From Candidatus Woesearchaeota archaeon (GTDB lineage Archaea > Nanobdellota > Nanobdellia > Woesearchaeales > GW2011-AR15), in NCBI GenBank assembly GCA_016935095.1, contig JAFGRO010000076.1, positions 15,030 through 79,029 of the forward strand: 64,000 bases of DNA, written 5' to 3'. The notes below the pieces were generated by a model. The model saw nothing but the letters and a program-made list of their open reading frames with translations, did no database searches and was not told the origin of the DNA. The position numbers and the translations under genes are program-made. Each line of letters opens with the position of its first letter. Position 1 is the stretch's first letter. Of the stretch, positions 37,729 to 62,821 are shown piece by piece.

Positions 37729-37805
37729 ATTCTTTACATAATAAAGATAGCAGATATTTAATTTTTATGACAAGACTTATATTTTAATTTTAAATCTATT
37801 GAATT

Positions 37806-38798
37806 ATGGACCACATAATAAATAGAATAATTGAAAAGATTCATTCTGATGGAAAGGATTTTCCCTTATTAGATGGGAATTACAAAGCAGCTGAAATATC
37901 CCTCGGGAATTTTCATAAGATTCCCGCTATTAAATCAGCTAAGAAACTGATTTTTGTAGACGGTGGCAGCAGTGAACTATTTAAATCACCGAGCATTAGC
38001 TTGTTTTTCAACAGAATCTATTACACAATCTATCAGAACAATAAGAGAATAAAAAACAAAAAATACGAGTTTTATACTTTAATTTATACTTTAAATAAAA
38101 ATAATAAATTGTTTTTTAAAACAGAGCTTTTCGGGAATGAATTCGATTTTGCAGAGTTAGAATTTGATTCACAGGACAAGACCCTTTGTTTTGGAAAAAA
38201 CAGGGCAAATATCTCTGTATTGGGGGATGTAATAAGGAGATTTGCAGAATTAAAGATTGGCTCTTCAATAAAAGAAGAGGATTCAGTTTTAGTTATGGAC
38301 GGCACACTTGAATTAAAATACTCTTTTGAAGATGAATTTTTAAAAGAATTATTCAGCTCAGCTAAAATAATATGCGGATTATCAAAGACCTGCTCTTTAT
38401 TGACACAGGAAGGAGATTCACTGATTCCAAAACTTGTAAGAATTTCACCTTATGCTTCCTGGTATTATAATCCGGTTCTTACGAATAATTCGGAATTACT
38501 GCCAAATATCTACTTTGTTAAATTCAATAAAAATTCCAGTTATGTTTTCAGGTTTGATGTTCATAAAAATAAATTCATTGATGAAATACTCTCATCATTA
38601 AAAGAGAACAGCAAGGATCCTGTTTTTTTAGGATATCCCTATGGTTTGATTGAAGCAGATAAAATGGCGAGAATCTCTAATAAAGAAACTGAAAGATTAA
38701 AGATGCAGTTAAGAATAAAGCTTGGGAATAATCTGAAAAACACAGAGGATTATGCCAATACATTGAATGCACACGATGTTTTAGATAATATTGGGTAA
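37806..38798 (+). CDS. nurA: NurA-like 5'-3' nuclease (putative)
   Basis: NurA-domain-like motif order: LIFVDGGSS ... VLVMDGTLE ... GYPYGLIEADKMARI. Confidence 0.45.
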   Translation: MDHIINRIIEKIHSDGKDFPLLDGNYKAAEISLGNFHKIPAIKSAKKLIFVDGGSSELFKSPSISLFFNRIYYTIYQNNKRIKNKKYEFYTLIYTLNKNNKLFFKTELFGNEFDFAELEFDSQDKTLCFGKNRANISVLGDVIRRFAELKIGSSIKEEDSVLVMDGTLELKYSFEDEFLKELFSSAKIICGLSKTCSLLTQEGDSLIPKLVRISPYASWYYNPVLTNNSELLPNIYFVKFNKNSSYVFRFDVHKNKFIDEILSSLKENSKDPVFLGYPYGLIEADKMARISNKETERLKMQLRIKLGNNLKNTEDYANTLNAHDVLDNIG

Positions 38799-38914
38799 AA
38801 TATAAGAGTTAATTGAATTAAGGGTATTTATTTTTTATTAATTTTCTTTTAATTTTCTTTTACTTTTAATTTATCATAAATGATTTTTTTTATTTTTAAT
38901 AGTTTAGTAATTAA

Positions 38915-39050
38915 GGGAGGGTGCATGTTGCCCTGGCTGTTTAACATGATGTCCCTCAATAGCTCCCTGCGCATATTTAATCAGAAGGGGCGCTTGGGGA
39001 ACATCTGCTTTGAGATTCAGGAGAAGTTATCCAATCTCCCTAAGCCTAAA
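38915..39050 (+). repeat. Conserved ~135-nt GC-rich intergenic element, copy B of 3
   Basis: Same conserved blocks as copy A. Lies about 200 nt upstream of the PfkB kinase gene on the same strand. Confidence 0.6.
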
Positions 39051-39255
39051 TAAAAAAGTATAAATTAGAATTATTTTTGTTTGATGATTTTTTATTCTGT
39101 CCTTTTTCCAAGCCTGAAAATAAAAAATAAATACTTAATCCCTCTTTTTTTTCAAATCTAAAACTAAATTTGGAATTGAATAATATTAATATCTTTTTTC
39201 AGCAAAATTTATAAAACCAGCATATATATTTCATTCTGTAAAAAGAGGTCTTTCA

Positions 39256-40236
39256 ATGTATGATGTAATTACTGTTGGCTCAGCTACTGTGGATGTATTT
39301 GCAGATTCAGCTTCTGAATTGATTAAAATCAAAACCCTGAAAGAAACAGAGGAACTGATAGCATACCCTTCCGGCTCGAAGATTCTTATAAAGAATATCC
39401 AGTTTCTTACAGGGGGCGGAGGCACAAACACGGCAGTTGCTCTTGCAAGACTTGGACACAAAGTTGCTTTTCTGGGCAATCTTGGGAAAGATGCAAATGC
39501 AAAAATAGTCCTTGAAGAGCTGGAAAAAAATAAAGTGGATTTTATAGGAGTAAAAGACAAAGGTATGACCGGATTTTCAGTTGTATTAAAAAGCCTTGAG
39601 CATGACAGGTCTATTCTTGCGTATAAAGGCGTTAATAATGATTTGACTGTTGATGAAGTAAATTTTAACAAGCTGAAAACAAAATGGTTCTATTTTTCTT
39701 CGATGATGGATGAGTCCTTTAAAACAATGGAAAAATTAGCAGAATTTGCGGAAAAAAACCATATAATGATTGCATTTAACCCAAGCAATTACCTGGCTGA
39801 GAAAGGCACTATCTTTCTGAGGAATGTTTTGACTAAAACAACATACCTGATTTTGAATACACAGGAAGCAGAACTTTTAGTAGGAAAAGGTGAATTCATT
39901 GATCTAATTAAAAAACTAATGGACTTTGGTCCAAAGCTTGTGGTTATAACTGACGGCAAAAGAGGCGCACATACTTTTAATAAAAATTATTATTACCACA
40001 TAATTCCCTCTGATGCAAAAGTCTTTGAGACAACTGGAGCAGGAGATTCTTTTGCCGCATCTTTTTTATCAGGGATGATTAAGAAAAATGATGTTGAGTT
40101 TGCATTGAGGCTTGCCCAGATTAATGCGGAGTCAGTAATCCAGCACACAGGGGCTAAAAATAAGTTGTTGACATATAAAGAAGCTCTTGGAATGTTAAAA
40201 AAAACCAAACTCAAAATTAAAAAAAGAAAAATTTAA
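39256..40236 (+). CDS. PfkB-family carbohydrate/nucleoside kinase (ribokinase-like)
   Basis: N-terminal GG motif (TGGGGTNTAVALARLG) and C-terminal DTTGAGDSF motif. Confidence 0.75.
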   Translation: MYDVITVGSATVDVFADSASELIKIKTLKETEELIAYPSGSKILIKNIQFLTGGGGTNTAVALARLGHKVAFLGNLGKDANAKIVLEELEKNKVDFIGVKDKGMTGFSVVLKSLEHDRSILAYKGVNNDLTVDEVNFNKLKTKWFYFSSMMDESFKTMEKLAEFAEKNHIMIAFNPSNYLAEKGTIFLRNVLTKTTYLILNTQEAELLVGKGEFIDLIKKLMDFGPKLVVITDGKRGAHTFNKNYYYHIIPSDAKVFETTGAGDSFAASFLSGMIKKNDVEFALRLAQINAESVIQHTGAKNKLLTYKEALGMLKKTKLKIKKRKI

Positions 40237-40322
40237 ACTTTCCGGTTTAATTTTTTTCAACCAAAGCTTTATAAAGAAAAACCCTGCGTTGTTAATTTAC
40301 TAATTGGTAAATGTGATAAATA

Positions 40323-40472
40323 ATGCAGGGATATAGCAGACTTGGAGTTTATAACAAAAACCTAATAGCCAAAAAAACAGCAGGAAAAGAAAAAAAAGCT
40401 TCTAAAGATTGGGTTAATATTGCTCTTTTTGTATTGCTGATTGTAGTGTTGGTCTTATTTATTATTACTTAA
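40323..40472 (+). CDS. Possible 49-aa tail-anchored membrane micro-protein
   Basis: Hand translation: MQGYSRLGVYNKNLIAKKTAGKEKKASKDWVNIALFVLLIVVLVLFIIT. Weak support. Confidence 0.25.
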   Translation: MQGYSRLGVYNKNLIAKKTAGKEKKASKDWVNIALFVLLIVVLVLFIIT

Positions 40473-40492
40473 ATGTTTTTAATAAACAATAT

Positions 40493-42475
40493 CTAATAAA
40501 CAATATCATATCTTAAGATATAGCATTCTCTCATATCTTTGATTGTGCAGAATTTAGATATGTTTTCTTTTATCCTGTCAATTGAGATTTTCCTGTTTAA
40601 TCTATTATTGTAATTAATTTCCACAAACTGTATCTTTTCAAAACAGGCATTATTTGATAAATGTGAAAAAATATATTCATCTGAGAGGGATATTTTATTG
40701 CCTGTTTTAACAAGGAGTTTTTTTTTTATTAGTCCTTCAATGATATTGCCTGCATTAAAGCTTAATTTTTTAATCAAGTCTTCCTCTTCAAAATTTTTGA
40801 ATTTAAACGCGGTATGCAGTACCCTGATCTCGTCTGAAGATAAGTTTTCCAGAGAAGGTAATTTTTTTGTTTTGAAATTATCTAAGTCTATAATAACATC
40901 ACCATTAATCATCTCTATCAATAAATTAAATTCATTTCTTTTTTCTGAGCATAAAATTAAATATCCCGGTATGAGTGTTGTCTCAATCCCTTTGATTTCT
41001 CTGTCAGACATAATCTTAAGGTCTTTTTTAGTTATTTTAGGCATAATCACAGGAAGAAGCTCTTTTTCATTGAACTCCTGGACCTTTTCAAAGAATTTTT
41101 CTTCATCTCGCTGCTCAAGAATATTTACAGCATGACCTCCATGCTTGGTTTTTCTTGGCCTGATGTTCACAAACAGGGGCATATCAACCACACCTGTAAT
41201 CAATGCAGTTCCTATTGGCAGGTTTTTAATTTCATTCTCAGATTCATTAGTTATGCCTTCAACAGAGTTTGCAATGCTTTTTAAGTCACTAGGGTTTGTG
41301 ACTTTGAGGATTATCTGTGTTGTGCACTGGGATAAGACAGATTTATCGACACGAGCAGGCCTCTGGGATATTATGCATAAGCCAAGGCCGAATTTTCTCC
41401 CTTCAGAAGCAACAGTCCTTAGGATCTTTGAGCATCTTGTCTCTCCGAAACTTCTTTCAGGGCAGTAGTTATGTGCCTCTTCAACAACACAGAAAAAAGG
41501 AGGGATTTTTTCTTTTTTCCTTAACTCAAATAAGTCTTTCATTAACTTGTAGACAATAATCTCCTGAACATCAGGTGAGATTCCTTTGAGATTTATAATC
41601 GTGCATTTTCCTAATTGGATAATCTCATTATATGGCAGGTAACTCTCTGTGAAAATATCAAGGTTGTTTAAATATTCTAAATTATTTATTATTGTCCATT
41701 TTGTGTTATTCTCTTCTTTTTCAAGCTCAAATAATACATTAGTGAAATTAATTACATCAAGGTGCTTTACTGCACTATATAACAATCCAAGCTGCGTATT
41801 AGTCAGTTTTCCTGGGATAAGATGTGTAATTTCAACAGGCGACAGATTATTGTTTAGTTTCAATGGTCTTAATTCAGGATTTGATTTTGAATCTCCGTAT
41901 TCATGAATATTTGTAAAGCCAAGCGGCTTTAAATCATATTTTGAAAGGATCTCTTTTTCCTCGATATTAGGGCTTTTCAAAGAAGAGTATTCTCCATGAG
42001 GATCTATTATAAGAAGAGGCACTTTCTTATCAATAATCTCCTCAATCAAAACACCCGAGGTATATGATTTTCCTGCTCCTGATTTTGCAAGGATTGCAAT
42101 ATGCTTTGTGAGAAGTTTTTTTAAATCCAGGATTACATCAATGTTCTTGCCGTCTAATCTGCCTATAAACGCCCCTTTTTCACAATCCTCCAGTTTTATG
42201 ACTGATTTTATAAATTCATCCTCTGCTTTTATGACTTCAGCATTCTGCTCAAACGGGATCCTTATCGGCTTTATTCTTCCCTTATCGTCTTTATAGCCGA
42301 TAACAATGCAGTTGGCAATATCTTTATCTGTGCGCTCAATTTCAATTACCTGGCATAAAACCCATTCATATACTTTATGCATTACCTGCACAAACTCAAA
42401 TTTCTTTGTTTCTTTTTCTACAAGGAATTTAAATTCCGTTGTTGTAATCCTGCCGAAGATTTTACCTAAAATCAT
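40493..42475 (-). CDS. herA: HerA-family (FtsK/HerA superfamily) hexameric ATPase with N-terminal HAS barrel and a ~170-aa C-terminal extension
   Basis: Walker A AILAKSGAGKSYTSG and Walker B FFCVVEEAHNY. The N-terminal beta-rich region precedes the ATPase core. Confidence 0.7.
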   Translation of the reverse strand: MILGKIFGRITTTEFKFLVEKETKKFEFVQVMHKVYEWVLCQVIEIERTDKDIANCIVIGYKDDKGRIKPIRIPFEQNAEVIKAEDEFIKSVIKLEDCEKGAFIGRLDGKNIDVILDLKKLLTKHIAILAKSGAGKSYTSGVLIEEIIDKKVPLLIIDPHGEYSSLKSPNIEEKEILSKYDLKPLGFTNIHEYGDSKSNPELRPLKLNNNLSPVEITHLIPGKLTNTQLGLLYSAVKHLDVINFTNVLFELEKEENNTKWTIINNLEYLNNLDIFTESYLPYNEIIQLGKCTIINLKGISPDVQEIIVYKLMKDLFELRKKEKIPPFFCVVEEAHNYCPERSFGETRCSKILRTVASEGRKFGLGLCIISQRPARVDKSVLSQCTTQIILKVTNPSDLKSIANSVEGITNESENEIKNLPIGTALITGVVDMPLFVNIRPRKTKHGGHAVNILEQRDEEKFFEKVQEFNEKELLPVIMPKITKKDLKIMSDREIKGIETTLIPGYLILCSEKRNEFNLLIEMINGDVIIDLDNFKTKKLPSLENLSSDEIRVLHTAFKFKNFEEEDLIKKLSFNAGNIIEGLIKKKLLVKTGNKISLSDEYIFSHLSNNACFEKIQFVEINYNNRLNRKISIDRIKENISKFCTIKDMRECYILRYDIVY

Positions 42476-42591
42476 GCATTTCCAGAAAGAAAAGGGATTT
42501 ATAAGGTTTTGGAGTCAAATCGAGAAGTTAAGTTATATGGGGTAATTGAATTTATTTTTTTATTTTTATAAATTATTTGATAATGAAAATA

Positions 42592-42954
42592 TTAAGTATT
42601 AGATGACTTAGTTAGTTTTTCAACAACTGCTTTAAGAGTTTGATATGCTCTGAAAAATAATGTTCTACCACTAATAAAGTAGTCAGCAGCACCTTGTGCA
42701 TAAGGATTTCCAATTCTAAGAAACTGTTCAAAGGCAGTTCTTGACTTACTGAAATATTCAAGAATTTGAGAATATTGTTCATTGAAGGGCTCTTTTGATA
42801 AAGTCTCAATTGCAATTTGAAGATATCTATAAACTTGGTGTTTTATTTGTCCAAGATCAATATTAATCTGTGAACCTTTTATTGCATTTTCTAGAATTCT
42901 ATTAGCATTAAAACCTATTCTAAATAATTCTATAAGATCTTCTTCATCTCCCAT
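42592..42954 (-). CDS. Hypothetical helical protein (atypical A/T-ending codon dialect)
   Basis: 120-aa ORF upstream of herA on the same strand, 117-nt gap. No family recognised. Confidence 0.35.
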   Translation of the reverse strand: MGDEEDLIELFRIGFNANRILENAIKGSQINIDLGQIKHQVYRYLQIAIETLSKEPFNEQYSQILEYFSKSRTAFEQFLRIGNPYAQGAADYFISGRTLFFRAYQTLKAVVEKLTKSSNT

Positions 42955-43005
42955 TCTATTAGATTAATAATTATACATTATATTAATATTTTACTTTTAG
43001 TAATT

Positions 43006-43143
43006 GAGGAACAGCACTTCTTGCCCTTCATGTGTCAGATGATGTTCCTCAATGGCTCCTTTCACTCATTATAATGCAAGGGGCGCTTGGGGAACTTCTG
43101 GTTAAATATTTAAAGCAAATATTACATCTCCCCAAGCCTAAAA
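43006..43143 (+). repeat. Conserved ~135-nt GC-rich intergenic element, copy C of 3
   Basis: Same conserved blocks. Lies about 100 nt upstream of the presenilin-like gene on the same strand. Confidence 0.6.
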
Positions 43144-43245
43144 CTAAATTTTAAAAAAATTTGAATTAAGAAATGCCTGTCATATTGATTTTGATTAGAG
43201 ACTGAAAACAAAAATAATTTAAATCTTTGCAATATAGGGATTCTT

Positions 43246-44169
43246 ATGAAGCATGATTTTAAAGTGACTCTCTTTCTTTTAATTTTATTTATTTCAGCCC
43301 AGGTTATTGGTTTGTTTATACTGAACCAAAGTATTATTGTAGAGGAGGCAATTGACGAAATAACAGGAGAAACAAGTGTTGTTTTGGATTATAAGGAAGT
43401 TATTACAGGAAGACCTGAAACCCAGGGAGCATCATCTTTTTTATATGTTTTTTTTGCAATTCTGATCGGGACAATCCTGCTTCTGATACTTATAAAATAC
43501 AAAATGCATAAAGTCTGGAAAACATGGTTCTTTGTTGCAGTCGGAATAACATTATCAATCGTGTTTGATGTTTTTTTTGAAGAAATTATTTCCTTGATCT
43601 TGGGATTTGCATTGGCTTATTTGAAAATATACAGGCCGAATATATTTACGCATAATCTGACAGAGGTTTTTATGTATGCAGGCATAGCCCTGATGATTGT
43701 TCCTATCTTCAATATATTCTGGATGATTATACTGCTGATAACAATCTCAATATATGATATTATTGCTGTTTTTAAAAGCAAGCACATGATTAAGCTTGCA
43801 AAATTCCAGTCCTCATCCAAGATGTTTGCAGGGCTTGTAATCCCCTATAAAAAATTACCACAATCCTCTTCGGAAATAAAAATCCATATACCTAAAGGAA
43901 TAAAGAAACAGGGCGTTAAATCCGCTATTTTAGGAGGAGGGGATATGGCATTTCCTTTGCTGTTTGCCGGTGTAGTGATGGAAAATCTGATTGTAGTTAA
44001 TCATATGACAAAACAATTAGCTTTTTTTAAGACATTAATCATACCTGTATTTGCCTGTATGGCTTTGGCAGTCTTATTATATTTAAGCAAAAAAAACAAG
44101 TTTTATCCTGCAATGCCGTTTTTAACTGCCGGCTGCCTGCTTGGATACGGGATTATTTTTTTTATTTAA
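43246..44169 (+). CDS. Presenilin/signal-peptide-peptidase-like intramembrane aspartyl protease (A22 family homolog)
   Basis: 9 TM. YD motif (SIYDIIAVF) and GxGD motif (LGGGDMAFP) in consecutive TM helices. C-terminal PAL-like motif (PAMPFL). Confidence 0.6.
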   Translation: MKHDFKVTLFLLILFISAQVIGLFILNQSIIVEEAIDEITGETSVVLDYKEVITGRPETQGASSFLYVFFAILIGTILLLILIKYKMHKVWKTWFFVAVGITLSIVFDVFFEEIISLILGFALAYLKIYRPNIFTHNLTEVFMYAGIALMIVPIFNIFWMIILLITISIYDIIAVFKSKHMIKLAKFQSSSKMFAGLVIPYKKLPQSSSEIKIHIPKGIKKQGVKSAILGGGDMAFPLLFAGVVMENLIVVNHMTKQLAFFKTLIIPVFACMALAVLLYLSKKNKFYPAMPFLTAGCLLGYGIIFFI

Positions 44170-45132
44170 TATATTTTCAATGACCATGATATTATCCCTG
44201 ATTCTTTTAATGTTAGGGTTGCCTTTTTTAAGGGCAAGTTTGAGGAATTTTAATGCAGCTGAATAATGCCTGTACATGAATAATATATTTGCAAGATTGT
44301 TATATCCCGCGGCAGAGATTCTACAGGCTTTTGCAAGTTTCTTATATATATCATAAGCTTTGTTGAATTCTCTGGCTTTTATATGAGCTTCTGCCATGCC
44401 TTCAAGGTTCTTATCCGGCTCAAAATTGAGCTGAACAGCTTTCTGGAAATATTCAACTGCTTTTTTATAATCTTTTTTATATTTCAAATTTACAGTGGCA
44501 GCTATTGCATAAATTCTTCCGGAAGGGTTTTTTTTAAGCTCTTTTTCTGCAATCTCAAGATATTTAAGTTGCCTGTTAATGAGTGATTTTTTTTCATAGT
44601 AATGGTGTATCGGAATATCTGAAACATCATATTTTTTAACAGAACTGTCAACAACTTCATGGACAACGCCTGAAAATTTTATCCCTTTATTATTCCTGAA
44701 TAATCTTATAATGGGATTTTTTACATATCCTTTGTAATTCCTGCAATAAGGATTATTATCAGCAGGTGTCCAGTTTGCCTGGGAGCTGTCATTAGTATAA
44801 TTCCTCTGTATAAGAAAAAACGCATCCTGTTTTGCATTATTAATTAATCCTATAACCTTTTCCATATCTGCAAGGACTTCATCAGCATCTAATACAAGAA
44901 TCCAGTCTTTAGTAGCTTTTGACAATGAAAAATTCCTTGCTTTGGAAAAATCATATTCCCATATAAAATCAAAAACATTATCTGTAAATTTTCCTGCAAT
45001 TTCCTTTGTCCTGTCTTTTGAGCCGGTGTCAACAATAATAATCTCATCTGCATGGTCTTTAACATGATTTAAACAATCTTCCAGAAACTCCTCTTCATCT
45101 TTTACAATCATGCACAGGGATAATGATGGCAT
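44122..45132 (-). CDS. Family 2 glycosyltransferase with C-terminal TPR repeats
   Basis: N-terminus SLCMIVKDEEEFLEDCLNHV...IIVDTGSKDRT (GT2, SpsA-like). TPR-like helical repeats at the C-terminus. Confidence 0.65.
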   Translation of the reverse strand: MPSLSLCMIVKDEEEFLEDCLNHVKDHADEIIIVDTGSKDRTKEIAGKFTDNVFDFIWEYDFSKARNFSLSKATKDWILVLDADEVLADMEKVIGLINNAKQDAFFLIQRNYTNDSSQANWTPADNNPYCRNYKGYVKNPIIRLFRNNKGIKFSGVVHEVVDSSVKKYDVSDIPIHHYYEKKSLINRQLKYLEIAEKELKKNPSGRIYAIAATVNLKYKKDYKKAVEYFQKAVQLNFEPDKNLEGMAEAHIKAREFNKAYDIYKKLAKACRISAAGYNNLANILFMYRHYSAALKFLKLALKKGNPNIKRIRDNIMVIENILNKKNNPVSKQAAGS

Positions 45133-45170
45133 GATTTTAATAAAAATATTTTAGAATTATAAATTTTAGC

Positions 45171-46184
45171 TTAAGCAACCGCTACCAGATACAATGCCTG
45201 GGACCAGCCAAGCGGTGTATTCTTGTTCGAAATTTTAGAACCGCCGTAATATAATTCAGGAATCTCGCATTTCCAGTTCATGCACTCATGTGTCTTGTTA
45301 ATATAGTAACGATATTTTTCTTCATTTCTCAAATCCCTGTAAATTTTAGCTAACCAGATAAAACCAAAGCACCATTCTGCCTCTTTATCCTGGTTTTTAT
45401 AATAATAATCATTAAAATACCTTATAATGCCTTTTTTCCTGACTAATTTCTCTTCAACATTTTTTAGGATTAAAGCCCTCTGCTGTACAGTAACTATATC
45501 GAAAGGATAAATCAGCGAGAGCAGTGCAAGATCAACATCTTTTGTTTTGCTTTCCTTAGGGAGCAAAGTATTTAGTGCTGTTTCACCTTTTTTTATAAGG
45601 CTGTCGGGAACATTCACAAGTCCTGTTACAGCTTTTAAACCAGCTAAACAGGCCCCTATTGAAGACGCATGGACCTCTTCTTCATTTTCCCAGATTCCAT
45701 TGTCAGGGTCATGCCAATATTCTATACTCTCTAGATATTTTACAAGCTTTTGCAGGATTCTTAAATCATCTAAGTCCCTGAACACAATAATCTTTTCCCT
45801 AAATAAAGTCCCGACCATAAACAGAAATGCGCCGACTGCATCATTTTGCTTATTGCCCCACACTTCATAGAACTCATTAAACGTATGAGGGCAATACCTG
45901 GCATGTATATACTTGTAAGCGGCATCCGGCTTTTCTTTTATAGCCCAGTCAATCTTATACTCGTGCTTTAAAAGGACATCAAATAGTGCATAATATGTTT
46001 TTTTTAATGATTTAATATCTTTTGCAGCCATTAAGCCGAGACTTTCATAAATATTGTCACGTATCCAGGCCTTGTTATAGCCTGTTTTTACTCTTTTTTT
46101 AGAAGCCCCGAACAGCCCGCTTGGATACTGCAGGCTCTTTAAAATCCTCTTAGAGAGTGTTTTTGATAATAGTTTTTTGATCAT
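45171..46184 (-). CDS. Glycoside hydrolase family 15-like (glucoamylase-related) protein
   Basis: (alpha/alpha)6-barrel-like. Conserved YNKAWIRDN motif typical of GH15. Confidence 0.5.
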   Translation of the reverse strand: MIKKLLSKTLSKRILKSLQYPSGLFGASKKRVKTGYNKAWIRDNIYESLGLMAAKDIKSLKKTYYALFDVLLKHEYKIDWAIKEKPDAAYKYIHARYCPHTFNEFYEVWGNKQNDAVGAFLFMVGTLFREKIIVFRDLDDLRILQKLVKYLESIEYWHDPDNGIWENEEEVHASSIGACLAGLKAVTGLVNVPDSLIKKGETALNTLLPKESKTKDVDLALLSLIYPFDIVTVQQRALILKNVEEKLVRKKGIIRYFNDYYYKNQDKEAEWCFGFIWLAKIYRDLRNEEKYRYYINKTHECMNWKCEIPELYYGGSKISNKNTPLGWSQALYLVAVA

Positions 46185-46300
46185 TATATTTCCTTGTCTA
46201 ATTAAATACTCCTTAAAAGTAGTAAGAGTATATAAATCTTTCGTTTTGTAGTTATTAAACAGTAGTAAAAATAGAAAGATTTATATAGTAAATTTATATC

Positions 46301-47914
46301 ATGTCTCCAATGACAGCACTTTCCGCTACATATAATGTAGATCTAACTAAATATAATGCTTTTCTATTAGAAAGATTAAAAAGTGAATTCCGGGCACGTT
46401 TATTACCAGAATCAACTGGAAGAAGACGAGTTTACCGAGATGGAGACCAACCTTGTGATTTATCAGAAGCACTTTATAATGATAGGCAAATTTGTTTACA
46501 GGGTGATCCTGGTTCTGGAAAAACTATGGCATTATTAAATGAAGGAATTAGAATTGTACAAGGAGAAGAAAGAAGTGAATATGGATTAACAACCCTTCTT
46601 TTAATGGAATTACATAGTTTAAGTACTGGATTGGATTTTTCAGCTCCTTATGAATTCTTTACAGCTTATTTACAAGGAATTGCACAAAAACTAGGTTTAT
46701 CAGATGACTTCCCTCAACAAGTGTATCAAGATCCTGGTACTGTTATTACACTTGATGGTCTAGATGAAATTGCTGATCCACAAATAAGAGAAAAAGTAAT
46801 ACAAAGCATCAATGAAGCCAAAGCAGCAGCAATTGCATCAAATGGAAAGTTGCCACAAATAATTGAAGTAGCAACTCGACCTTGGGTAACTGTTGAAGGT
46901 TTTATACCTTATGCCTTAGAACCATTAACAGAAGTACAAATGGCACAAATTTTTGTAGGTGAGTTAAATGCATATTTTGATAGTATTTATGGTGAGGATG
47001 GATTGAAAGGAAAAGCTAGAGAAACTCAAATCAGGCAAAGAACTGATGATTTTCTCATGTATCTTTCACAAAGATCCTGGAGTCATATATTAAGAAATCC
47101 ATCATATTTGAGATATGCAGTACATCATCAAAATCCATTACCAGGAACATTTGGAGAATTTCTTGAAGCAGCAACTGATGGTTTTTTAATAGGTATTCAA
47201 GCAAGAAGAGATTTAGTGGAAGAATTAAATGTAGTTGTAGATAGACATCATCAACGACTTGGACAACATATATCTGATATGATTCCAGTATTAAGAGAAA
47301 TGGCATGGGTAGCACATACAGAAAAAAGTCGAGCTTTACCTTTAGATAAAATATTATCTATAGAAAGGTGGGATCCAAATGGTAGCTATTCAAATTCACT
47401 TTTATCTCAATTACCTACTGAAAGAAAAGAACAAATGCTTGATAAAATTGCGGAGAAATCACCTTTTTTAGCTCGCTATGAAGCAGAAGGAATTACTACT
47501 AAACATTATTTTTTTACACATCTAGGATTACAAGAATTTTTAGCTGGACAAGCACTTGCAGATAGAATAAATGAAGGGAAAATATCTCTTGATGAAGTAG
47601 ACAATATGCTTGATAATTCTTGGTGGAGACAACCTGTCCTTTATTCTTTTTCTAGTTTAAACTGGAATCAGGCAAATGCATTAGCTGAAAAAGTAATACA
47701 GAGACAGGATAGATCTTTAATGGCTGATGCTTATCATATGGTACAGGGAAAAGTACTTCTACATTACTTAGAAGCTTTTGAAGCAGCAAATAGTGAATTA
47801 CAGACAGAGACTACAATTGATGAGCAAGAGCTAAGGGCAGAATTAAAAAAGGCTGAGGGATCATCTTCTCAGAAACAAAAGAGAGGAAGATTAGGTTTTT
47901 TGGAAAAAAAATGA
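46301..47914 (+). CDS. NACHT-type STAND NTPase (short, 537 aa; no obvious effector or repeat sensor domain)
   Basis: Walker A GDPGSGKTMALL and NACHT-style Walker B VITLDGLDEIAD. Distinct A/T-ending codon dialect (tta, caa, gga, aga, gaa). Confidence 0.6.
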   Translation: MSPMTALSATYNVDLTKYNAFLLERLKSEFRARLLPESTGRRRVYRDGDQPCDLSEALYNDRQICLQGDPGSGKTMALLNEGIRIVQGEERSEYGLTTLLLMELHSLSTGLDFSAPYEFFTAYLQGIAQKLGLSDDFPQQVYQDPGTVITLDGLDEIADPQIREKVIQSINEAKAAAIASNGKLPQIIEVATRPWVTVEGFIPYALEPLTEVQMAQIFVGELNAYFDSIYGEDGLKGKARETQIRQRTDDFLMYLSQRSWSHILRNPSYLRYAVHHQNPLPGTFGEFLEAATDGFLIGIQARRDLVEELNVVVDRHHQRLGQHISDMIPVLREMAWVAHTEKSRALPLDKILSIERWDPNGSYSNSLLSQLPTERKEQMLDKIAEKSPFLARYEAEGITTKHYFFTHLGLQEFLAGQALADRINEGKISLDEVDNMLDNSWWRQPVLYSFSSLNWNQANALAEKVIQRQDRSLMADAYHMVQGKVLLHYLEAFEAANSELQTETTIDEQELRAELKKAEGSSSQKQKRGRLGFLEKK

Positions 47915-47931
47915 TTAAACAAACTCTTCCT

Positions 47932-48876
47932 TTAACAAACACTTGCTGCTCCAATCAACCCAACATCTGTATTCAGAACAATAGAAATATTGATTTTTTT
48001 TAACAGCTCAGAATAAACCCGGTGCTTAACAAACTCTTTTAAAAAATATTTTTTAAGGTATTCTTTAATCTTAGGAGAGATGCCTCCGCATAAATAGATA
48101 TGAGAGGGGATAAGGTGCAGGGCGGAATCCCTTGTGAATCTTGCAAAGTATCTTGTGAATTCTTTTAGTGTGAGTTTGCAGAGCTCGTCTTTGTTACTGT
48201 ATTTGGTTATCATCTCAGCGCTTTTCATTACTGTTTTTTTGATTTTTTCTCCAGCCTGGTAACTTCTCTGGGAAGAGGTTTTTATAGCAAGGTGTTTATA
48301 TAAGTTAATTATGCCTTTACCAGAAAGAATATCCTCATAATAGACCTGCTTTCCGTATTCTTTTCTCAGAAAATCAAGCAGGGAATAATCATGGATATCC
48401 TCAATTCCCATTAAGGTGAGCCCGCCTTCTCCTGGAAAGACAAGCTCATGCACAACATATGCTTTTCCAAGTCCTGTGCCGGGACCTACAACCATTTTGA
48501 CTTTATTGTTAAACTTGGATCTGTTCAGTACAATGAAATCCTTGTTTTTCAGGACTTTAATGCCCTGTGCAATAGCATGGAAATCATTTATCAAAAAAAT
48601 CTTTATATTAAGTTTTTTTTCAAGTAATTTCCTGTTTATTGTAAGGTCTGCATTAGTCAGCTTTGCTTTACCTTCAATCACAGGTCCTGCAAACCCGATA
48701 CATGCTTTTTTAATATCGTCTTTTTTGTTTTTTTTAAGAAATTCATTAATTAATCTGAATAAATCTTTTATTTCTTTTGTTGCATATATCTCTTTTTTTA
48801 TTATCTTATTATTTTCAACCAGGGCAATTCTGCAATTAGTGCCGCCGATATCCATAGAAAGAACTCTCTTTTTCAT
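47932..48876 (-). CDS. glk: ROK-family glucokinase/sugar kinase
   Basis: N-terminus MDIGGTNCRIALV and the ROK fold. Confidence 0.7.
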   Translation of the reverse strand: MKKRVLSMDIGGTNCRIALVENNKIIKKEIYATKEIKDLFRLINEFLKKNKKDDIKKACIGFAGPVIEGKAKLTNADLTINRKLLEKKLNIKIFLINDFHAIAQGIKVLKNKDFIVLNRSKFNNKVKMVVGPGTGLGKAYVVHELVFPGEGGLTLMGIEDIHDYSLLDFLRKEYGKQVYYEDILSGKGIINLYKHLAIKTSSQRSYQAGEKIKKTVMKSAEMITKYSNKDELCKLTLKEFTRYFARFTRDSALHLIPSHIYLCGGISPKIKEYLKKYFLKEFVKHRVYSELLKKINISIVLNTDVGLIGAASVC

Positions 48877-48912
48877 TCTTCAAACTTAAAATAAGAGGAT
48901 TTAAATAATTTT

Positions 48913-49725
48913 CTAGTAATTTTTCAAAGTCTTTTGCCTGACAGATGAGGAAAAAGAAACAGGGTTAATGACTAGACCGTCTTTTGCGGCAATTACCTGG
49001 GCCTGAGATTGTTTTTGTATCTCCCTGGCTTCATAAATCGGATCTGCCTGTAGCATCTTAATACCAAAATGGGTTATTATGGCAAGCTTTGGTTTAGCTC
49101 TTTCAATGAATTTTATAGCATCGTCTGTATTCAGGCTGCCTTTTTGTTTTGTATTCCTTGGGGAGATTACACACAATATTAATATATCTGTGTTTTTATA
49201 TTGGTCAGCAATCTCATTTGTAAATTCTGTGTCAGAAGTATATCCCATTGTGAATTTTGGTGCAAAGAATTTAAAACCAACCCCATTTTCATCTAAATGC
49301 TTTGTTTCTGTAAGCTTAATATCAATATGATTAATGCCGACTTTAGAATCAGGATCCAGCGCAATATATCTTTCTACGCATCTTTTATAGAAATTATGTA
49401 TAAAAGGCTCATTTTCAGATGTGCCGTTGATAGATGAATTATTGCCGACAAGAACACCTTTTTTGTCTAATCCGTTATGAGTCATCGCACTTATAACTTC
49501 ATTTGCGCCTCCTGCATGATTGATATGGTTATGAGAAACAAAAACAGCAGTATTCTCCCTTAAATTTATCCCGTACATGCGGGCCATGACCAATGAGCCT
49601 GGTCCTGGATCAATATGAAACTGGTTATCCTCAACCTGAAGAATTATCCCTCCTGAGCCCCTGTATTGTTTCCCTATGACAATAGAGTCCCCACCACTAC
49701 CTAAAAAAACAATCCTGTCCCCCAT
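48913..49725 (-). CDS. Metallo-beta-lactamase-fold hydrolase
   Basis: Histidine cluster VFVSHNHINHAGG and a downstream His/Asp pattern. Confidence 0.55.
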   Translation of the reverse strand: MGDRIVFLGSGGDSIVIGKQYRGSGGIILQVEDNQFHIDPGPGSLVMARMYGINLRENTAVFVSHNHINHAGGANEVISAMTHNGLDKKGVLVGNNSSINGTSENEPFIHNFYKRCVERYIALDPDSKVGINHIDIKLTETKHLDENGVGFKFFAPKFTMGYTSDTEFTNEIADQYKNTDILILCVISPRNTKQKGSLNTDDAIKFIERAKPKLAIITHFGIKMLQADPIYEAREIQKQSQAQVIAAKDGLVINPVSFSSSVRQKTLKNY

Positions 49726-49881
49726 ACTATTATAGAATGATTACAACTATAAAAAAATTGTGTATTTTCTTAAAAAAATCTTAAGAAAATACTCAATTTT
49801 TGATACCAAAAATTACAAACGTAATTTTTTCGTATAAAAACTTTTGGCTAAAATCATTAATGTCTTCTTTGAAAAAAGTAC

Positions 49882-52722
49882 TCACTCAACCAATATAGCA
49901 GGCTTGCTTGGCATTGCACTATTTGCCTTGTTTTCTTTTGAGTTTTCCGCTTTTTCTACAATAAATTCTGCATTAAATTCCTTTGCAAAGAAATCACGGG
50001 CTTCATTCATTGCTTTGAATTCCTGATTGGCTGAAGTAAAATCTTCAATTGTTTTGCCTGTTTTAATTATCCTCTGAATAATTCCCATAACTGATTTACC
50101 TTGTTTTTTTAGCTTTTCATCTTTCATTACTTCTTTTATGATATCTGAGAAGTTCCTTGTTTTCTCCAATAATGGCTTTAGTTTATTATATAAATCATAT
50201 TTCCATTCTTGCGAGATAAACAAAGTTATTTTTTTAGGCTTTTTTATTCCTGTAATCTTTAGAACAGAATGAATGTCATTCAATGTTGTTTCAATGATTT
50301 TTTCTAAAATAATAATCTCATTGTTGATTTTTTCATTGTATTTCGGCCATTCTGCCAGGCTGATGAATCCTTTTTTTCCAATTGCTTCCCAAGTTTCTTC
50401 GCAGATAAAGGGGAGTATCGGCGATAAAAGCAGAAGCTGAGTTTCAATCAATTTATTCATTACTTCTTTATTAGGAGAGCCGGCAGTTCTCCTTAAATAC
50501 CATTTTACCAGCCTTTGAATGTCAAAATAAGCTTTCTGGATAGCACTTCTGAAAAGCATTTCTTCGTAGCATTCAGTTGTTTCCTTTACAATTAAATTAA
50601 TCTGAGCAAGCATCCATTCATCTATTGTGCGTGTTTCATAAATTCCCTTGTTGTAATTCTGTTTAGCAAAATCTAAAATGCCTTTAAGCTTATCTTTCAT
50701 TGCTACTGCAAGTTCAGTATCCCAGTTTGCGTCATCCAGGCTTTCACCTCCCGAAAGCACTGTAAAGCGGGAAGCATCGCTTCCGAAGTCGTGGCTCATT
50801 TTCCTTACAGGAATAACATTGCCGAGGCTTTTTGACATTTTCTGGGAGTCAACAGTAACCCAGCCATTAAGTCCAAATGCTTTAGGCCAATGCTTTTTAG
50901 TAAAGATTGCAATATGGTTAAATATGCAAAAAGTCATGTGGTTCTGTATAAGGTCTTTGCCGGAAGTCCTGTAATCCATGGGATACCAGTAATTAAACTC
51001 TTCATGGAGCTCATCAAGTAATTTAGAGTTTACTGGAATATCTTTTTTATCTCCTTTTCCTAAAAACACATAATCAAAAAACTTATCATCAATTTTCTCA
51101 ATTGGAATTTCTTTTATTTTATGCGCAATAGTATAATATGCCATGTATATTGTGCTGTCTGATAAAGATTCAATCACCCATTTCTTGTCCCATGGCAACG
51201 GTGTTCCTAATTCTGTTTCAGATTCATGTGTACATGCCCAGTCATTCAGCCAGTCAATAACATAATTAAACTGTGCTCTGACTTTTTCAGGAAATAATTT
51301 CATTGAATCAAGACATTCGTGAGCTTGCTTTTTCCAATCTTTGTTTCCATAAGCCAGGAACCATTGGTCTGAAACTATCTTTATTTTAGCTTCCGAGAGA
51401 CATCTACAAATAACTTTTCCGGTAGGCTCATACATTAAGTCTGCTTTGCCTTGTTTTAATAAAGATTTCTTCATTTTTTCCTTGCCGAATTCAACAGGCA
51501 TCCCTGCATAAGGACCGCAGTTTTCATTTAGTTTTCCGGTGTGGTAACCTGCTTTATAGATTATTTTACGTGCATCTTCCAGTTTTTCACGCTCTCTTTG
51601 ATTTTTAATTTTCCAGTCTTCAACAATCTTAACTGCAGCTGTATCTCCCCATTCCTTTGTTTTTATAATCGGGATGACTTCTATTTTTTTAATATCTTCC
51701 CAGTTCAGGCCGAATTTTTCACATTCTTCCTGGCTTTCCTGAAGATCCCTTAACCCGATATAATCATCGGGAGCATCGCTTGGAACACTTGTTACAATGC
51801 CTGTGCCGATGTTCGGGTCGCAAAAATAACTTGGAAGGACAATAATCTCTTTGTCAATACCTGGAGCAAGAGCATATTTTCCAATCATTTCTTTAGCAGG
51901 AATCTCACCTAAATATTCAACTTTTTTATCCTGCAATTTCAATTTTTCAGTGCATTCCCTGCTGCAGATCCAGTTTTCTTTGTCATTTACTTTGATTTTG
52001 ATATATATAGCTTCAGGATCAACCCATATATTGGTCTGACCATAGATGGTTTCAGGCCTTAAAGAGGCACAGATTATATAGGAATCTCCAAATCTGAATT
52101 TAAGCAAAGTATATTCTTGCGGGGTTTCACCCTCTCCAGCAACTCTGGCATGATCTCCTATTGCAGAATTGCATTTCTCACACCAGACAACAGGCTTTTT
52201 TCCTTTAATTACATAGCCTTTTTTTTTCAGGTTGCGGAACTGCCACTCAATGAATTTATTGTAATGCGGATTTAAAGAAGTTGTATGAAAATTACGCCTC
52301 CAGTCAATTGAGCAGCCAAGTTCTTTTAAATCCTCTTCCCATCCTTTTGAAAAAACCTTGATCCATTGTTTAGGATCTTCAAATTTTTTAATTTCTTCAT
52401 CTGAAAAGCCCATACTCCTTAATGTTTTCAGCTGTTTTTCTTCTTTTTCTTTAACGCGGAGAGCGGCATTTACAATAGGTGAGCCGGTAGCGTGCCATGC
52501 CTGAGGATAAAGAACATTATAACCTTTCATTCTTTTATATCTTACAAGAGCCTCTAATCTCATTAGGGAATAGAAATGACCTATATGGGGGTAAAGGTTA
52601 ATATAAGGATAAGGGAACGTTCCGAAAAATTTATCTTTGCCTTTTTTAGGATTAGCTTCAAATATTTTTTCTTTTTCCCAGCGGTTGTTCCATTTATTTT
52701 GTAATTTTTTCCAGCTGACCAT
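49882..52722 (-). CDS. leuS: Leucyl-tRNA synthetase (archaeal/eukaryal type)
   Basis: HIGH motif (PYPYINLYPHIGHFYS) and KMSKS motif (KMSKSLGN). 946 aa. Confidence 0.9.
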   Translation of the reverse strand: MVSWKKLQNKWNNRWEKEKIFEANPKKGKDKFFGTFPYPYINLYPHIGHFYSLMRLEALVRYKRMKGYNVLYPQAWHATGSPIVNAALRVKEKEEKQLKTLRSMGFSDEEIKKFEDPKQWIKVFSKGWEEDLKELGCSIDWRRNFHTTSLNPHYNKFIEWQFRNLKKKGYVIKGKKPVVWCEKCNSAIGDHARVAGEGETPQEYTLLKFRFGDSYIICASLRPETIYGQTNIWVDPEAIYIKIKVNDKENWICSRECTEKLKLQDKKVEYLGEIPAKEMIGKYALAPGIDKEIIVLPSYFCDPNIGTGIVTSVPSDAPDDYIGLRDLQESQEECEKFGLNWEDIKKIEVIPIIKTKEWGDTAAVKIVEDWKIKNQREREKLEDARKIIYKAGYHTGKLNENCGPYAGMPVEFGKEKMKKSLLKQGKADLMYEPTGKVICRCLSEAKIKIVSDQWFLAYGNKDWKKQAHECLDSMKLFPEKVRAQFNYVIDWLNDWACTHESETELGTPLPWDKKWVIESLSDSTIYMAYYTIAHKIKEIPIEKIDDKFFDYVFLGKGDKKDIPVNSKLLDELHEEFNYWYPMDYRTSGKDLIQNHMTFCIFNHIAIFTKKHWPKAFGLNGWVTVDSQKMSKSLGNVIPVRKMSHDFGSDASRFTVLSGGESLDDANWDTELAVAMKDKLKGILDFAKQNYNKGIYETRTIDEWMLAQINLIVKETTECYEEMLFRSAIQKAYFDIQRLVKWYLRRTAGSPNKEVMNKLIETQLLLLSPILPFICEETWEAIGKKGFISLAEWPKYNEKINNEIIILEKIIETTLNDIHSVLKITGIKKPKKITLFISQEWKYDLYNKLKPLLEKTRNFSDIIKEVMKDEKLKKQGKSVMGIIQRIIKTGKTIEDFTSANQEFKAMNEARDFFAKEFNAEFIVEKAENSKENKANSAMPSKPAILVE

Positions 52723-52883
52723 GTTTTATTCACCTTTTGAATTAGTATTTTATTAAGTTTTATAAAATTTGTTAAGAAAAGAACAATGAACCAGCTCATA
52801 TGAGCAGAATCAGCAATAAATTTGGCTGTAAGTTCATGATTTGAGAAAGTAGGGTGAATTTATATTTAAATCTATTCCTTTGA

Positions 52884-53084
52884 TTAGAACTTCTTAAACA
52901 TGGCAGCCTCATCCAGTAAATCCACATGGCCGAGGAAGGCTGTCCTGCAGCAGTATCTTTCTAAACCAAGTTCATCCAGAGCTTTTTGTATATTCTTTTT
53001 TTTATTCTCGGTTTTAATTAAGAAATCTTCCCATAAATGGGCAATTGGCTTTCCGCAGCTCCAGCACCTCACAGGAATAATCAT
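52884..53084 (-). CDS. rpoN: DNA-directed RNA polymerase subunit N (RpoN/Rpb10)
   Basis: MIIPVRCWSCGK ... LGLERYCCR zinc-bundle signature. The ORF-track N-terminal extension was rejected; start at the internal Met (53082-53084). Confidence 0.8.
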   Translation of the reverse strand: MIIPVRCWSCGKPIAHLWEDFLIKTENKKKNIQKALDELGLERYCCRTAFLGHVDLLDEAAMFKKF

Positions 53085-53103
53085 CGTGTTCTGCTGAAAA
53101 TAA

Positions 53104-54974
<1,871 letters not shown>

Positions 54975-55127
54975 TTAAATAAGGAAAATTGTGATTATTT
55001 AAAAAAATTTTTAAATTATGAACCCTTAATAAATTTAAAGAGGTGATTATTTATTGCTAAGTTAAAGAGAATAACTCTGGTAATCCTTTATTTATTAATC
55101 TTTTTAATTAGTATATTTCTTATTTTT

Positions 55128-55391
55128 TTGGTGAGATCCACCATTAAAAATAATGGAATATCCTCTGTTATAGTAAATATAGATGAGTTCTTTAAAGAAA
55201 AGGATTCAGTAGCTAAACCATTTATAATTATTTTATTGACAGTTCTTTTTATTGTGGCAGTTATGAGTACAATTTTGATGTATATGAACTATTTTGTCCT
55301 AGATAACCCTAACCTGGAAAAAAGAATAATCAGAGACCTGAATAAAGAAGTCAGGGAACTGAATAAACAAAGTAAAAAAAGAAACAAATAA
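55128..55391 (+). CDS. Small single-TM protein with Lys/Arg-rich C-terminus, 25 nt upstream of the RelA/SpoT-like gene (possible partner or antitoxin)
   Basis: 87 aa. The TM helix is FIIILLTVLFIVAVMSTILMY. Confidence 0.35.
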   Translation: MVRSTIKNNGISSVIVNIDEFFKEKDSVAKPFIIILLTVLFIVAVMSTILMYMNYFVLDNPNLEKRIIRDLNKEVRELNKQSKKRNK

Positions 55392-55416
55392 GAATTAATA
55401 TTCCCTTCTAGTATTC

Positions 55417-56433
55417 ATGACTGAAAAAACAAGCCTGGGAGAGGTAATTGTTGATAGTGTTGAACTCAGGAAACTATATGAATTGAGAAAACCCAAATAT
55501 GAGAGACTTACGGATTTAGTCTATCTAATATTGAATTCCTCTCTGGAAAGAAACAACATAAGAATACATTCAATGAAAAAAAGAGTGAAAGATTATTCAA
55601 GTTTTCTTGAAAAGGTTGAAAGAAAGAGATATAAAGATCCGTTTTTACAATGTACGGACCTGGCAGGATGCAGGATAATGTGTTTGTTTCTTTCGCAAAT
55701 AGAACAGATAAAAAAAATAATTAATGAAGAATTCGAAGTTATTGAGATAAGCGACAAAAAAACCACAAAAAAATTTGACCAGTTCGGTTATTTGTCTTTG
55801 CATATGCTGGTAAAAAGCCCTAGAAAACGACTAAATTTAATAGAATATTCAGAGCTTAAAGATTTGGTTTGCGAGATTCAGATAAGGACGATACTACAGG
55901 AAGCTTGGGCTGAAATTGAGCATTACCTGAATTATAAGACTACAAAAGAAGAGAGAAATGAAGATCTGCTTAGAAAGATTTTCTCTTTGGCAGGGATGTT
56001 TGAAGTGGCGGACTCAACATTTGAAGATATCCACAAAGGCTTTTCAAAGCTCATCACAAAAAGACTAGCGGGAGATAAAGAGACAATTACAGGTCTGAAT
56101 CTGTTCAAATTTTCCCAAACCTATTTTTCATGGTATAAGCAGGAATGGAATAAAGTAACAGAAAGAGCATTTTATAAACTGAGCAATGAAATAAAAAAGA
56201 TTAATATTAAATCAATAAATAAAATAAAAGCACTGCTGGAAAAATATAATTCAGAGCTTAAAAAATATGAGCTTTATCACAAGGAAAAAGAAAAAAAAGT
56301 CGAATTAAGATTTTTTTCTCCGGTTGGGTTAATAAGGGCAGCGCTTGCCTTGGAATATGGGAAGAAATTTGATTTGATATTCGGGTTGAAGGGATATAGT
56401 GAGAGAGTTAGGAGAGAAACTGAAAGTGGTTAA
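55417..56433 (+). CDS. RelA/SpoT-type nucleotidyltransferase (small alarmone synthetase / toxSAS-like) with ~150-aa C-terminal extension
   Basis: Synthetase-domain motifs RVKDYSSFLEKVERKRY ... CTDLAGCRIM ... FGYLSLHMLV ... EIQIRTILQEAWAEIEHYLNYK. Confidence 0.65.
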   Translation: MTEKTSLGEVIVDSVELRKLYELRKPKYERLTDLVYLILNSSLERNNIRIHSMKKRVKDYSSFLEKVERKRYKDPFLQCTDLAGCRIMCLFLSQIEQIKKIINEEFEVIEISDKKTTKKFDQFGYLSLHMLVKSPRKRLNLIEYSELKDLVCEIQIRTILQEAWAEIEHYLNYKTTKEERNEDLLRKIFSLAGMFEVADSTFEDIHKGFSKLITKRLAGDKETITGLNLFKFSQTYFSWYKQEWNKVTERAFYKLSNEIKKINIKSINKIKALLEKYNSELKKYELYHKEKEKKVELRFFSPVGLIRAALALEYGKKFDLIFGLKGYSERVRRETESG

Positions 56434-56504
56434 GTTATTTATTTTTTTAGTCAATTATTTCAAAAAATTGAACAAATTATAGAAAATTCATCAATATTGA
56501 CCAA

Positions 56505-57324: not shown

Positions 57325-57326
57325 TT

Positions 57327-57677: not shown

Positions 57678-57702
57678 TTTTTTATATAATCTTTTATTAT
57701 AA

Positions 57703-57812: not shown

Positions 57813-57834
57813 TTAATTAAGCAAAAGGTCCGAG

Positions 57835-59552: not shown

Positions 59553-59614
59553 TTTTTACCTCGTAAAAAACAGGGGCTTAAAAATTTTATTTGAAAATTT
59601 TTTTTGTCCCATTT

Positions 59615-62820: not shown

Positions 62821-62821
62821 G

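Follow-up and report, generated by a model that had tools for sequence, protein, structure and literature searches.

A foreign-looking, stand-alone NACHT NTPase in a Woesearchaeota genome and its small, mostly archaeal family

From bacteria to humans, NACHT and NLR proteins act as key switches of immunity, and what a minimal working switch of this type looks like is an open design question. It is raised in concrete form by a 64,000-nucleotide stretch (the window) of contig JAFGRO010000076.1 from a Candidatus Woesearchaeota archaeon, in which a single coding sequence (46301..47914, + strand, ATG start, stop codon included) for a stand-alone NACHT NTPase of 537 amino acids (aa) lies between two genes of sugar metabolism. 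A preliminary description of this DNA had proposed either a minimal, Avs-like defense gene acquired from elsewhere or the truncated remnant of a longer one. We therefore asked whether the gene is intact, whether it is foreign, and what its product may do. The explanation that we favor, with fair confidence, joins three elements: an intact foreign accessory NACHT switch, a host-type promoter element in front of it, and a role in biological conflict that is speculative.

Both nucleotide-binding motifs named in the preliminary description are present in the open reading frame (ORF). The Walker A motif or P-loop, GDPGSGKT (aa 68-75; 46502..46525, +), fits GxxxxGK[ST], and its residues G71, G73, and K74 are invariant in six family members (see below) and also in a 36-sequence set that includes remote NACHTs. 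The Walker B motif, VITLDGLDE (aa 148-156; 46742..46768, +), contains DGLDE, which fits D[GAS]hDE, the signature by which NACHTs are told from the remaining STAND clades (Kibby et al., preprint 10.1101/2022.07.19.500537). Asp152, Gly153, Asp155, and Glu156 are invariant in the family, one member of which reads DGRDE. The sensor-1 region, ATRP with Arg193 (46871..46882, +), follows strand 186-191 in the structural model, and this arginine is invariant in both the 6-member and the 36-sequence alignments. The same holds for Pro267 of RNPSYL (aa 265-270; 47093..47110, +), a motif of helical domain 1 (HD1) that is the counterpart of NPLLL in other NACHTs and is aligned by hhalign to 'NPLLLTMIA'.

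Within the family, conservation peaks (0.59 over 20 aa) in the region of the winged-helix motif FFTHLGLQEFLAG (aa 404-416; 47510..47548, +), which carries the conserved His407 and is aligned to FTHLHVQEFFAA of NLRP14 and to FAHLTFQEYLAA of bacterial NACHTs. The His motif FxHxxxQE is present, matching FTHLHVQEF of NLRP14, and Phe405, Thr406, His407, Gly409, Gln411, and Glu412 are invariant in the six-sequence alignment. The last element in common with other NACHT proteins is WWRQP (aa 441-445; 47621..47635, +), aligned by hhalign to WWxE in relatives, with Trp441, Arg443, and Pro445 invariant in the family. NACHT is the best Pfam family for all six family members (best E value, 1e-7), and a family profile retrieves PF05729 proteins at ~1e-18, many of them with a C-terminal FGE-sulfatase domain. 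Aligned by hhalign against 28 such NACHT proteins, the family matched with a probability of 99.94% (E value, 7e-37), and the match was confined to aa 48-450. A comparison of the profile with PDB sequences gave NLRP14, NLRP5, and NLRP3 as the best matches, including the FTHL..QEF motif. Together these results show that the protein is an intact and, by its sequence, functional-looking STAND NTPase of the NACHT clade, with all catalytic residues kept at 28-29% identity.

We built an AlphaFold2 (AF2) model on the 36-sequence alignment (predicted local distance difference test [pLDDT] score, 85; predicted template modeling [pTM] score, 0.86) and discarded a single-sequence model with a pLDDT of 41. 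The best Foldseek matches of the model were ADP-bound, autoinhibited NLRC4 and NOD2 (E value, 6e-9; TM score, 0.55), and active-state NLRC4 scored lower than the autoinhibited forms (TM score, 0.32). Between 384 and 404 residues superpose on NLRP3 and NOD2, the winged-helix domain fold is present, and the model is nearer in structure to NACHT than to the sister STAND clades.

The model also accounts for the whole modeled chain: an N-terminal helix, a nucleotide-binding domain (NBD) with HD1 and a winged-helix domain (WHD) up to WWRQP, a helical extension, and a charged tail. The N-terminal extension (aa 1-47; 46301..46441, +) begins MSPMT and forms one long helix at aa 9-32 with pLDDT values above 90; it is poorly conserved across the family (per-domain conservation, 0.16), and hhalign does not include it in the match with other NACHTs. 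The NACHT module itself (aa 48-450; 46442..47650, +) comprises the NBD, HD1, WHD, and the start of helical domain 2 (HD2). Beyond it and beyond the hhalign match, a family-specific, all-helical C-terminal extension of about 85 aa (aa 451-537; 47651..47911, +) carries a MADAY motif (aa 474-478; 47720..47734, +) whose Asp476 and Tyr478 are invariant in the family. Conservation is even over the domains (0.23 to 0.27) and falls only in the first 40 and the last 32 residues, the extreme tail (aa 506-537) being variable, charged, and of low confidence, with a conservation of 0.04.

The preliminary description had recognized neither an effector nor sensor repeats, and our searches agree with it, since Pfam, NCBIfam, and PADLOC yielded no effector or repeat domain anywhere in the 537-aa protein. 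No Pfam, PADLOC, or NCBIfam domain that could serve as an N-terminal effector or adaptor was found in aa 1-47, which form a single helix in the model, and the residues after the NACHT module gave no family match to a C-terminal sensor (LRR, TPR, WD40, FGE-sulfatase, or other), only helices. Compared with animal NLRs (NLRP3, NOD2, and NLRC4) and bacterial NACHTs, the window protein thus lacks both the N-terminal effector or adaptor and the C-terminal LRR, TPR, WD40, or FGE-sulfatase part and amounts to 537 aa in all. As judged from its sequence and the predicted model, it is a NACHT reduced to the nucleotide-binding oligomerization domain (NOD-only), with no sensor or effector fused to it.

A short protein of this kind could be what is left of a longer one, and we therefore looked at the length of its homologues. 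In a word-indexed protein search, only remote NACHT-FGS proteins were found; the true family surfaced solely when phmmer was run exhaustively against 1.84 billion representative proteins. This search returned five clear relatives (P0006-P0010) of 488-512 aa, which align from end to end at 28-29% identity with E values of 1e-26 to 1e-39, and a more distant paralogue of 585 aa (P0011). All remaining matches were multidomain NACHT proteins with E values of 1e-9 or higher, so that the family numbers six to seven members among 1.84e9 representatives. In favor of a truncated or decaying pseudogene of a longer defense STAND that has lost its sensor and effector, the nearest relatives outside the family measure 590-940 aa and usually bear a C-terminal FGE-sulfatase domain, and the window protein scores under the Pfam cut-off for NACHT. 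Five homologues with the same ~500-aa length, the same ends, the same intact catalytic motifs, and the same MADAY motif at such low identity speak against decay, as do the uninterrupted ORF with a promoter element upstream of it and the complete ORFs with flanking genes on the contigs of the other members. The remnant proposed in the preliminary description is thus very improbable, and domain loss, if any occurred, was ancient and family-wide. There are also short bacterial proteins whose sole annotation is NACHT domain-containing, such as a 519-aa Archangium protein (P0159), so that the minimal architecture, though unusual, is not confined to this family.

The members are scattered. Four of the seven family proteins carry archaeal names at NCBI, and the genes around a fifth are of archaeal type. 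An 88.9-kb contig of Candidatus Woesearchaeota archaeon encodes 'hypothetical protein JXB41_08505', to which the window protein is 100% identical. P0009 comes from a metagenome-assembled genome (MAG) named 'Nanoarchaeota archaeon'. P0008 (512 aa; locus L013/L002, 10001..11539) and P0011 (585 aa; locus L012, JBDRQT010000011.1, 2424..4181) are diverged paralogues on separate contigs of one unclassified 'archaeon' MAG, GCA_043826135.1, and P0011 sits two genes from an rve-family transposase gene. The gene for P0006 lies between rpL10e and a NOG1-type GTPase gene on a contig with archaeal ribosomal and RNA polymerase genes, and that for P0007 is found on contigs of unassigned origin. For P0010, the neighboring genes (ABC transporter, DinB, DUF2059, and MutS) do not point clearly to any taxon, and the contig may be bacterial. 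We conclude that the family is a new, very small subfamily, minimal in architecture and mostly archaeal (DPANN or other unclassified archaeal MAGs), of the known NACHT clade.

The preliminary description had also raised the question of a separate effector encoded by a small adjacent ORF. The spacers on either side of the NACHT gene measure only 116 bp and 17 bp, and there is consequently no room for an additional ORF beside it. The neighbors differ at every family locus, with ribosomal, repair, or metabolic genes on the flanks of some members, and when the ORFs flanking all family loci were compared with one another and with the odd-dialect ORFs of the window described below, no similarity was found that would reveal a conserved partner or effector. 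At L007, a 158-aa ORF (93..569) with a GC3 (G+C content at third codon positions) of 0.26 against 0.38 ends 4 bp before the gene for P0007 and could be cotranscribed with it; it shows no similarity to the ORFs beside other family members.

Next to its neighbors, the NACHT gene speaks a different codon dialect, as the preliminary description had stated. Its total G+C content (0.33) is, however, that of the genome, the window, and the flanking genes, so what sets the gene apart is codon position and amino acid composition: the G+C contents at the three codon positions are 0.51, 0.38, and 0.13, while the other window ORFs have a GC3 of 0.292 ± 0.046. The ratio of lysine to lysine plus arginine, K/(K+R), is 0.41 versus ~0.75 in the other ORFs, and the preferred codons change with it: CAA makes up 79% of the Gln codons (34% in the other ORFs), GGC 0% of Gly codons (29%), CTG 0% of Leu codons (16%), and AGG 12% of Arg codons (35%). 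Because the NACHT gene overuses the commonest A/T-ending codons, a log-likelihood under the pooled host table is an unsuitable measure, and in its place we used Karlin's codon bias B with a sampling null. The bias of the NACHT gene against all other ORFs was 0.405, where 0.193 is expected by sampling (z = 8.1), which makes it the strongest codon outlier among 57 ORFs (median z, 0.6).

A gene so unlike its neighbors in codon usage and amino acid composition might have been joined to them by chimeric assembly or binning of foreign DNA. Against such an artifact, the same gene order around the NACHT gene recurs in an independent Logan assembly (run SRR13394437), its bulk G+C content is identical to that of the flanks, it is placed precisely between two host genes, a perfect 13-nucleotide (nt) promoter element is common to it and the divergent host gene, and three other dispersed ORFs use the same dialect. 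We regard an artifact as hardly credible. The contigs from different samples that encode the identical protein are also 100% identical in DNA, hence a comparison of synonymous sites between them says nothing on purifying selection.

Elsewhere in the family, the dialect shift recurs at two loci, where the GC3 of the homologue is below that of its neighbors (0.26 versus ~0.40 at L002; 0.18 versus ~0.35 at L003), and is not seen at L006/L007 and L010. Foreign codon usage together with a very patchy distribution is consistent with the horizontal acquisition that the preliminary description had suggested, the product being an accessory gene inserted singly between two sugar-metabolism genes. No direct repeats, att sites, or tRNA genes were found flanking the NACHT gene as marks of an island, and ARAGORN detected no tRNA gene anywhere in the window (1..64000). 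Close relatives of the flanking glucokinase, which might have revealed an empty insertion site, were sought and not found.

Three dispersed ORFans of the window share the dialect: 18946..19425 (+), 29855..30331 (+), and 42592..42954 (-), encoding 159, 158, and 120 aa, respectively. They combine a GC3 of 0.12-0.18 with high G+C at the first and second positions, CAA for 85% of Gln, AGA for 92% of Arg, and K/(K+R) values of 0.29-0.50, and two of the three have signal- or transmembrane-like N termini. Where tested, they gave no Pfam, PADLOC, or PHROG match; they form singleton clusters and are mutually unrelated. The shared dialect suggests that they and the NACHT gene have a common foreign source or represent a class of weakly expressed young genes. 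Four same-dialect ORFans in the window and the GC3 shifts in other archaeal contigs point to a very AT-rich donor pool, for which a virus, a plasmid, or a partner organism feeding genes into these archaea are candidates. A recent origin from a known virus or known plasmid is not supported, as searches of viral, phage, and plasmid sets were empty.

The shared dialect would also fit a different reading, in which the protein is a NOD-only modulator, that is, a decoy or regulator that co-oligomerizes with another, full-length NACHT or STAND receptor, possibly one of the archaeon itself, and tunes or blocks it, or else an anti-defense leftover of a mobile element. That solely the oligomerization module is present, that its foreign dialect is common to three other dispersed ORFans, and that the paralogue P0011 lies so close to a transposase gene would all agree with this. 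We nevertheless see it as a long shot, given that tblastn found no second NACHT or STAND gene in the window, that viral, plasmid, and PHROG relatives are lacking, and that the catalytic residues, needless in a passive decoy, are fully conserved.

How a foreign gene would be expressed in this host is suggested by the intergenic region shared with the divergent flanking gene for a GH15 glycoside hydrolase (45171..46184, -; gene start at 46184), which lies across the 116-bp spacer. The other flank, across the 17-bp spacer, is a ROK-type glucokinase gene (47932..48876, -), and the carbohydrate-metabolism neighbors mentioned in the preliminary description are thereby identified. A BRE/TATA-like element, AAAGATTTATATA, stands 14 nt upstream of the NACHT ATG (46275..46287, +), and an identical copy (46229..46241, -) faces the GH15 gene; the two perfect copies form the arms of a 22-nt inverted repeat in the GH15/NACHT intergenic region. 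Allowing up to one mismatch, AAAGATTTATATA occurs 7 times in the window where 1.26 are expected, several times upstream of other genes, and judged by this recurrence it is likely the BRE/TATA consensus of this archaeon and a putative promoter before the NACHT gene. Further copies are located at 11874, 23611, 29802, 30953, and 53110.

An archaeal TATA box lies at -30 to -23 relative to the transcription start. With this standard spacing, transcription of the NACHT gene would start near 46310, the A of Met4, which is a possible alternative start of the coding sequence, so that translation may begin there without a leader. If a TATA at 46229-46236 were used instead, Met1 would be preceded by a leader of 42 nt.

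For the function of the protein, established NLR and STAND biochemistry offers a model, in which it would act as an ADP/ATP molecular switch. Lys74 together with Asp152 and Glu156 would bind and hydrolyze ATP. In established NLR structures, the winged-helix histidine binds ADP, and by comparison with them His407 would keep ADP bound and the protein closed at rest, until a trigger allows nucleotide exchange and ring-like oligomerization. Because no sensor or effector is fused to the protein, the short C-terminal extension would be expected to provide the ligand-contacting surface, which is speculative, as is the output, either the clustering of short termini or the recruitment of an unlinked partner. 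By analogy with the effector-less clade-14 bacterial NACHTs, we speculate that the switch could serve in conflict with viruses or mobile elements.

Two lines of evidence count in favor of a defense role. The gene is accessory, patchy, and foreign-looking, and its nearest relatives are NACHT-FGS proteins. FGS domains have been treated as sensors of defense-associated STANDs (PMC13581612), and NACHT-FGS proteins have been described as putative antigen sensors (PMC10907252; PMC13581612). A defense role is plausible, although PADLOC, viral and plasmid matches, and gene context give it no support.

Several observations weigh against the explanation that we favor. Some concern the assignment and the origin of the gene: the window protein scores 18.1 bits against PF05729 (E value, 0.0025), below the gathering cut-off of 26.7, which we attribute to divergence and not to a lack of homology in view of the family-wide Pfam and profile results above; no relatives were found among the viral contigs of IMG/VR, the metagenome contigs of JGI, INPHARED phages, PLSDB plasmids, BFVD structures, or PHROGs, the viral and plasmid part of which offers no support for a mobile source; and very low expression, instead of a foreign source, could account for part of the low GC3. 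Others concern defense: the models of PADLOC, NCBIfam, and PHROGs do not match the NACHT protein, no recognizable defense island or conserved partner gene exists at any family locus (seven loci, too few for statistics on enrichment beside defense genes), the window neighbors are metabolic with a generic HerA gene ~4 kb away as the only PADLOC match, and the poor conservation of the N-terminal extension weakens the idea of a conserved effector peptide. Moreover, only 198 of 589 STAND clades are defense-associated (PMC13581612), and NACHT membership alone therefore does not imply defense.

The same facts lend some weight to a signaling or regulatory STAND switch outside defense, for instance an ATP-dependent scaffold that serves the physiology of the archaeon itself or the way it interacts with a host cell. 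The larger share of STAND clades (391 of 589) is not defense-associated (PMC13581612), defense neighbors, an effector domain, and a PADLOC match are all missing, the contexts in the window, at L002/L013, and at L003 are housekeeping or metabolic, and the promoter element is of the host type. We still consider this unlikely, because an extremely patchy distribution over six to seven members, foreign codon usage in at least three hosts, a gene neighborhood that is not conserved, and the absence of any DNA-binding or enzymatic output domain are hallmarks of an accessory or conflict gene and not of physiology.

We compared the protein with known systems that might share its logic. Outside the family, the closest proteins are bacterial NACHT-FGE-sulfatase proteins of Planctomycetota, CPR, KSB1, and other groups (E values with the family profile, ~1e-17 to 1e-18), which show ~24% identity over the NACHT module as far as the WWRxP motif. 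Some of them, such as P0003, likewise begin directly at the NACHT module. They reach 700-940 aa and carry a PF03781 sensor, whereas the archaeal family has an unrelated 85-aa helical extension in its place. With the Avs (AVAST) proteins, the window protein shares the general STAND logic of an ATP-dependent oligomerizing switch; unlike them, it matches no Avs family model with its Avs-type ATPase, TPR sensor, and effector, nor any other PADLOC model, and the label Avs-like does not apply.

Clade-14 bacterial NACHTs also lack a recognizable effector, and among them are the bNACHT01/11-like antiphage proteins, composed of NACHT and SNaCT. bNACHT11 kills by plasmolysis through a ~45-aa N-terminal extension with the consensus MDPIT after ATP-dependent heptamerization (10.1101/2024.12.17.629029), and a related 'MEPIS' region has been described in Bell/Hell domains and Avast2 (10.1101/2024.11.07.622273). 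The window protein resembles clade 14 in being a short NACHT with a short C-terminal extension and no recognizable effector, and it resembles bNACHT11 in its ~47-aa N-terminal extension, which begins MSPMT where clade 14 has MDPIT. Pro3 and Thr5 fit the motif, in which Asp2 and Pro3 are essential, but position 2 is Ser and not the acidic residue (Asp or Glu) that bNACHT11 requires, and none of the other family members has the motif, their starts being MSYTK, MPSTN, MPRDL, MQLFQ, and MVVLT. We take the likeness as a lead only, since Met1-Pro3 may not be translated. The window protein is also ~100 aa shorter than clade-14 proteins, and SNaCT binds ligands by beta-augmentation, which argues against equivalence with the shorter, all-helical extension of the family. 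No sequence relationship with clade 14 was detected beyond the NACHT module, a comparison made by description and not with the bNACHT sequences, and the nearest detectable relatives are the FGE-sulfatase NACHTs rather than enterobacterial proteins.

A bolder version of the explanation would see in the family a mobile, self-contained minimal NLR, mostly archaeal, that senses through its C terminus and whose output is the oligomerization-driven clustering of its termini. Such a protein would possibly expose an N-terminal peptide, of the MDPIT/MEPIS type, that acts on membranes, and it would circulate among ultrasmall symbiotic archaea from an AT-rich pool (GC3, ~0.13) together with the same-dialect ORFans. 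We hold this to be distinctly unlikely; if true, it would make the family the smallest complete immune unit of the NLR type. If the protein is instead an ordinary regulatory ATPase, the finding would have local annotation value only. The family provides a natural NOD-only example of ~500 aa, with intact catalytic motifs, whose architecture is kept at 28-29% identity, and the window protein, being small and well predicted, would be a convenient minimal model for nucleotide-driven NACHT oligomerization. The family is found in genome-reduced DPANN archaea, whose defense repertoire and interactions with viruses are poorly known.

Three other genes of the window deserve mention. The second-strongest codon outlier (z = 4.4) is a very AT-rich gene at 36082..37194 (+), in a region with a G+C content of 0.23 and itself with a GC3 of 0.15. 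Its product gives weak matches to HTH_3 and LAGLIDADG_3 as well as PHROG matches to transcription regulators and HNH proteins, and the gene may be a mobile one, either homing-endonuclease-like or for a regulator. About 4 kb from the NACHT gene, 40493..42475 (-) encodes a HerA-family ATPase of 660 aa (Pfam DUF87; PADLOC HerA, E value 6e-46), directly downstream of the 120-aa ORFan at 42592..42954 and on the same strand. No NurA-like partner is seen adjoining the HerA gene, and the pair could be an ordinary archaeal HerA with its neighbor or a HerA-based defense pair. The second gene downstream of the NACHT gene (48913..49725, -) encodes a metallo-beta-lactamase-fold protein of 270 aa without a PADLOC match; it has precomputed Pfam matches to PF23023 (Anti-Pycsar_Apyc1) and Lactamase_B_2 and may simply be a host hydrolase of this fold.

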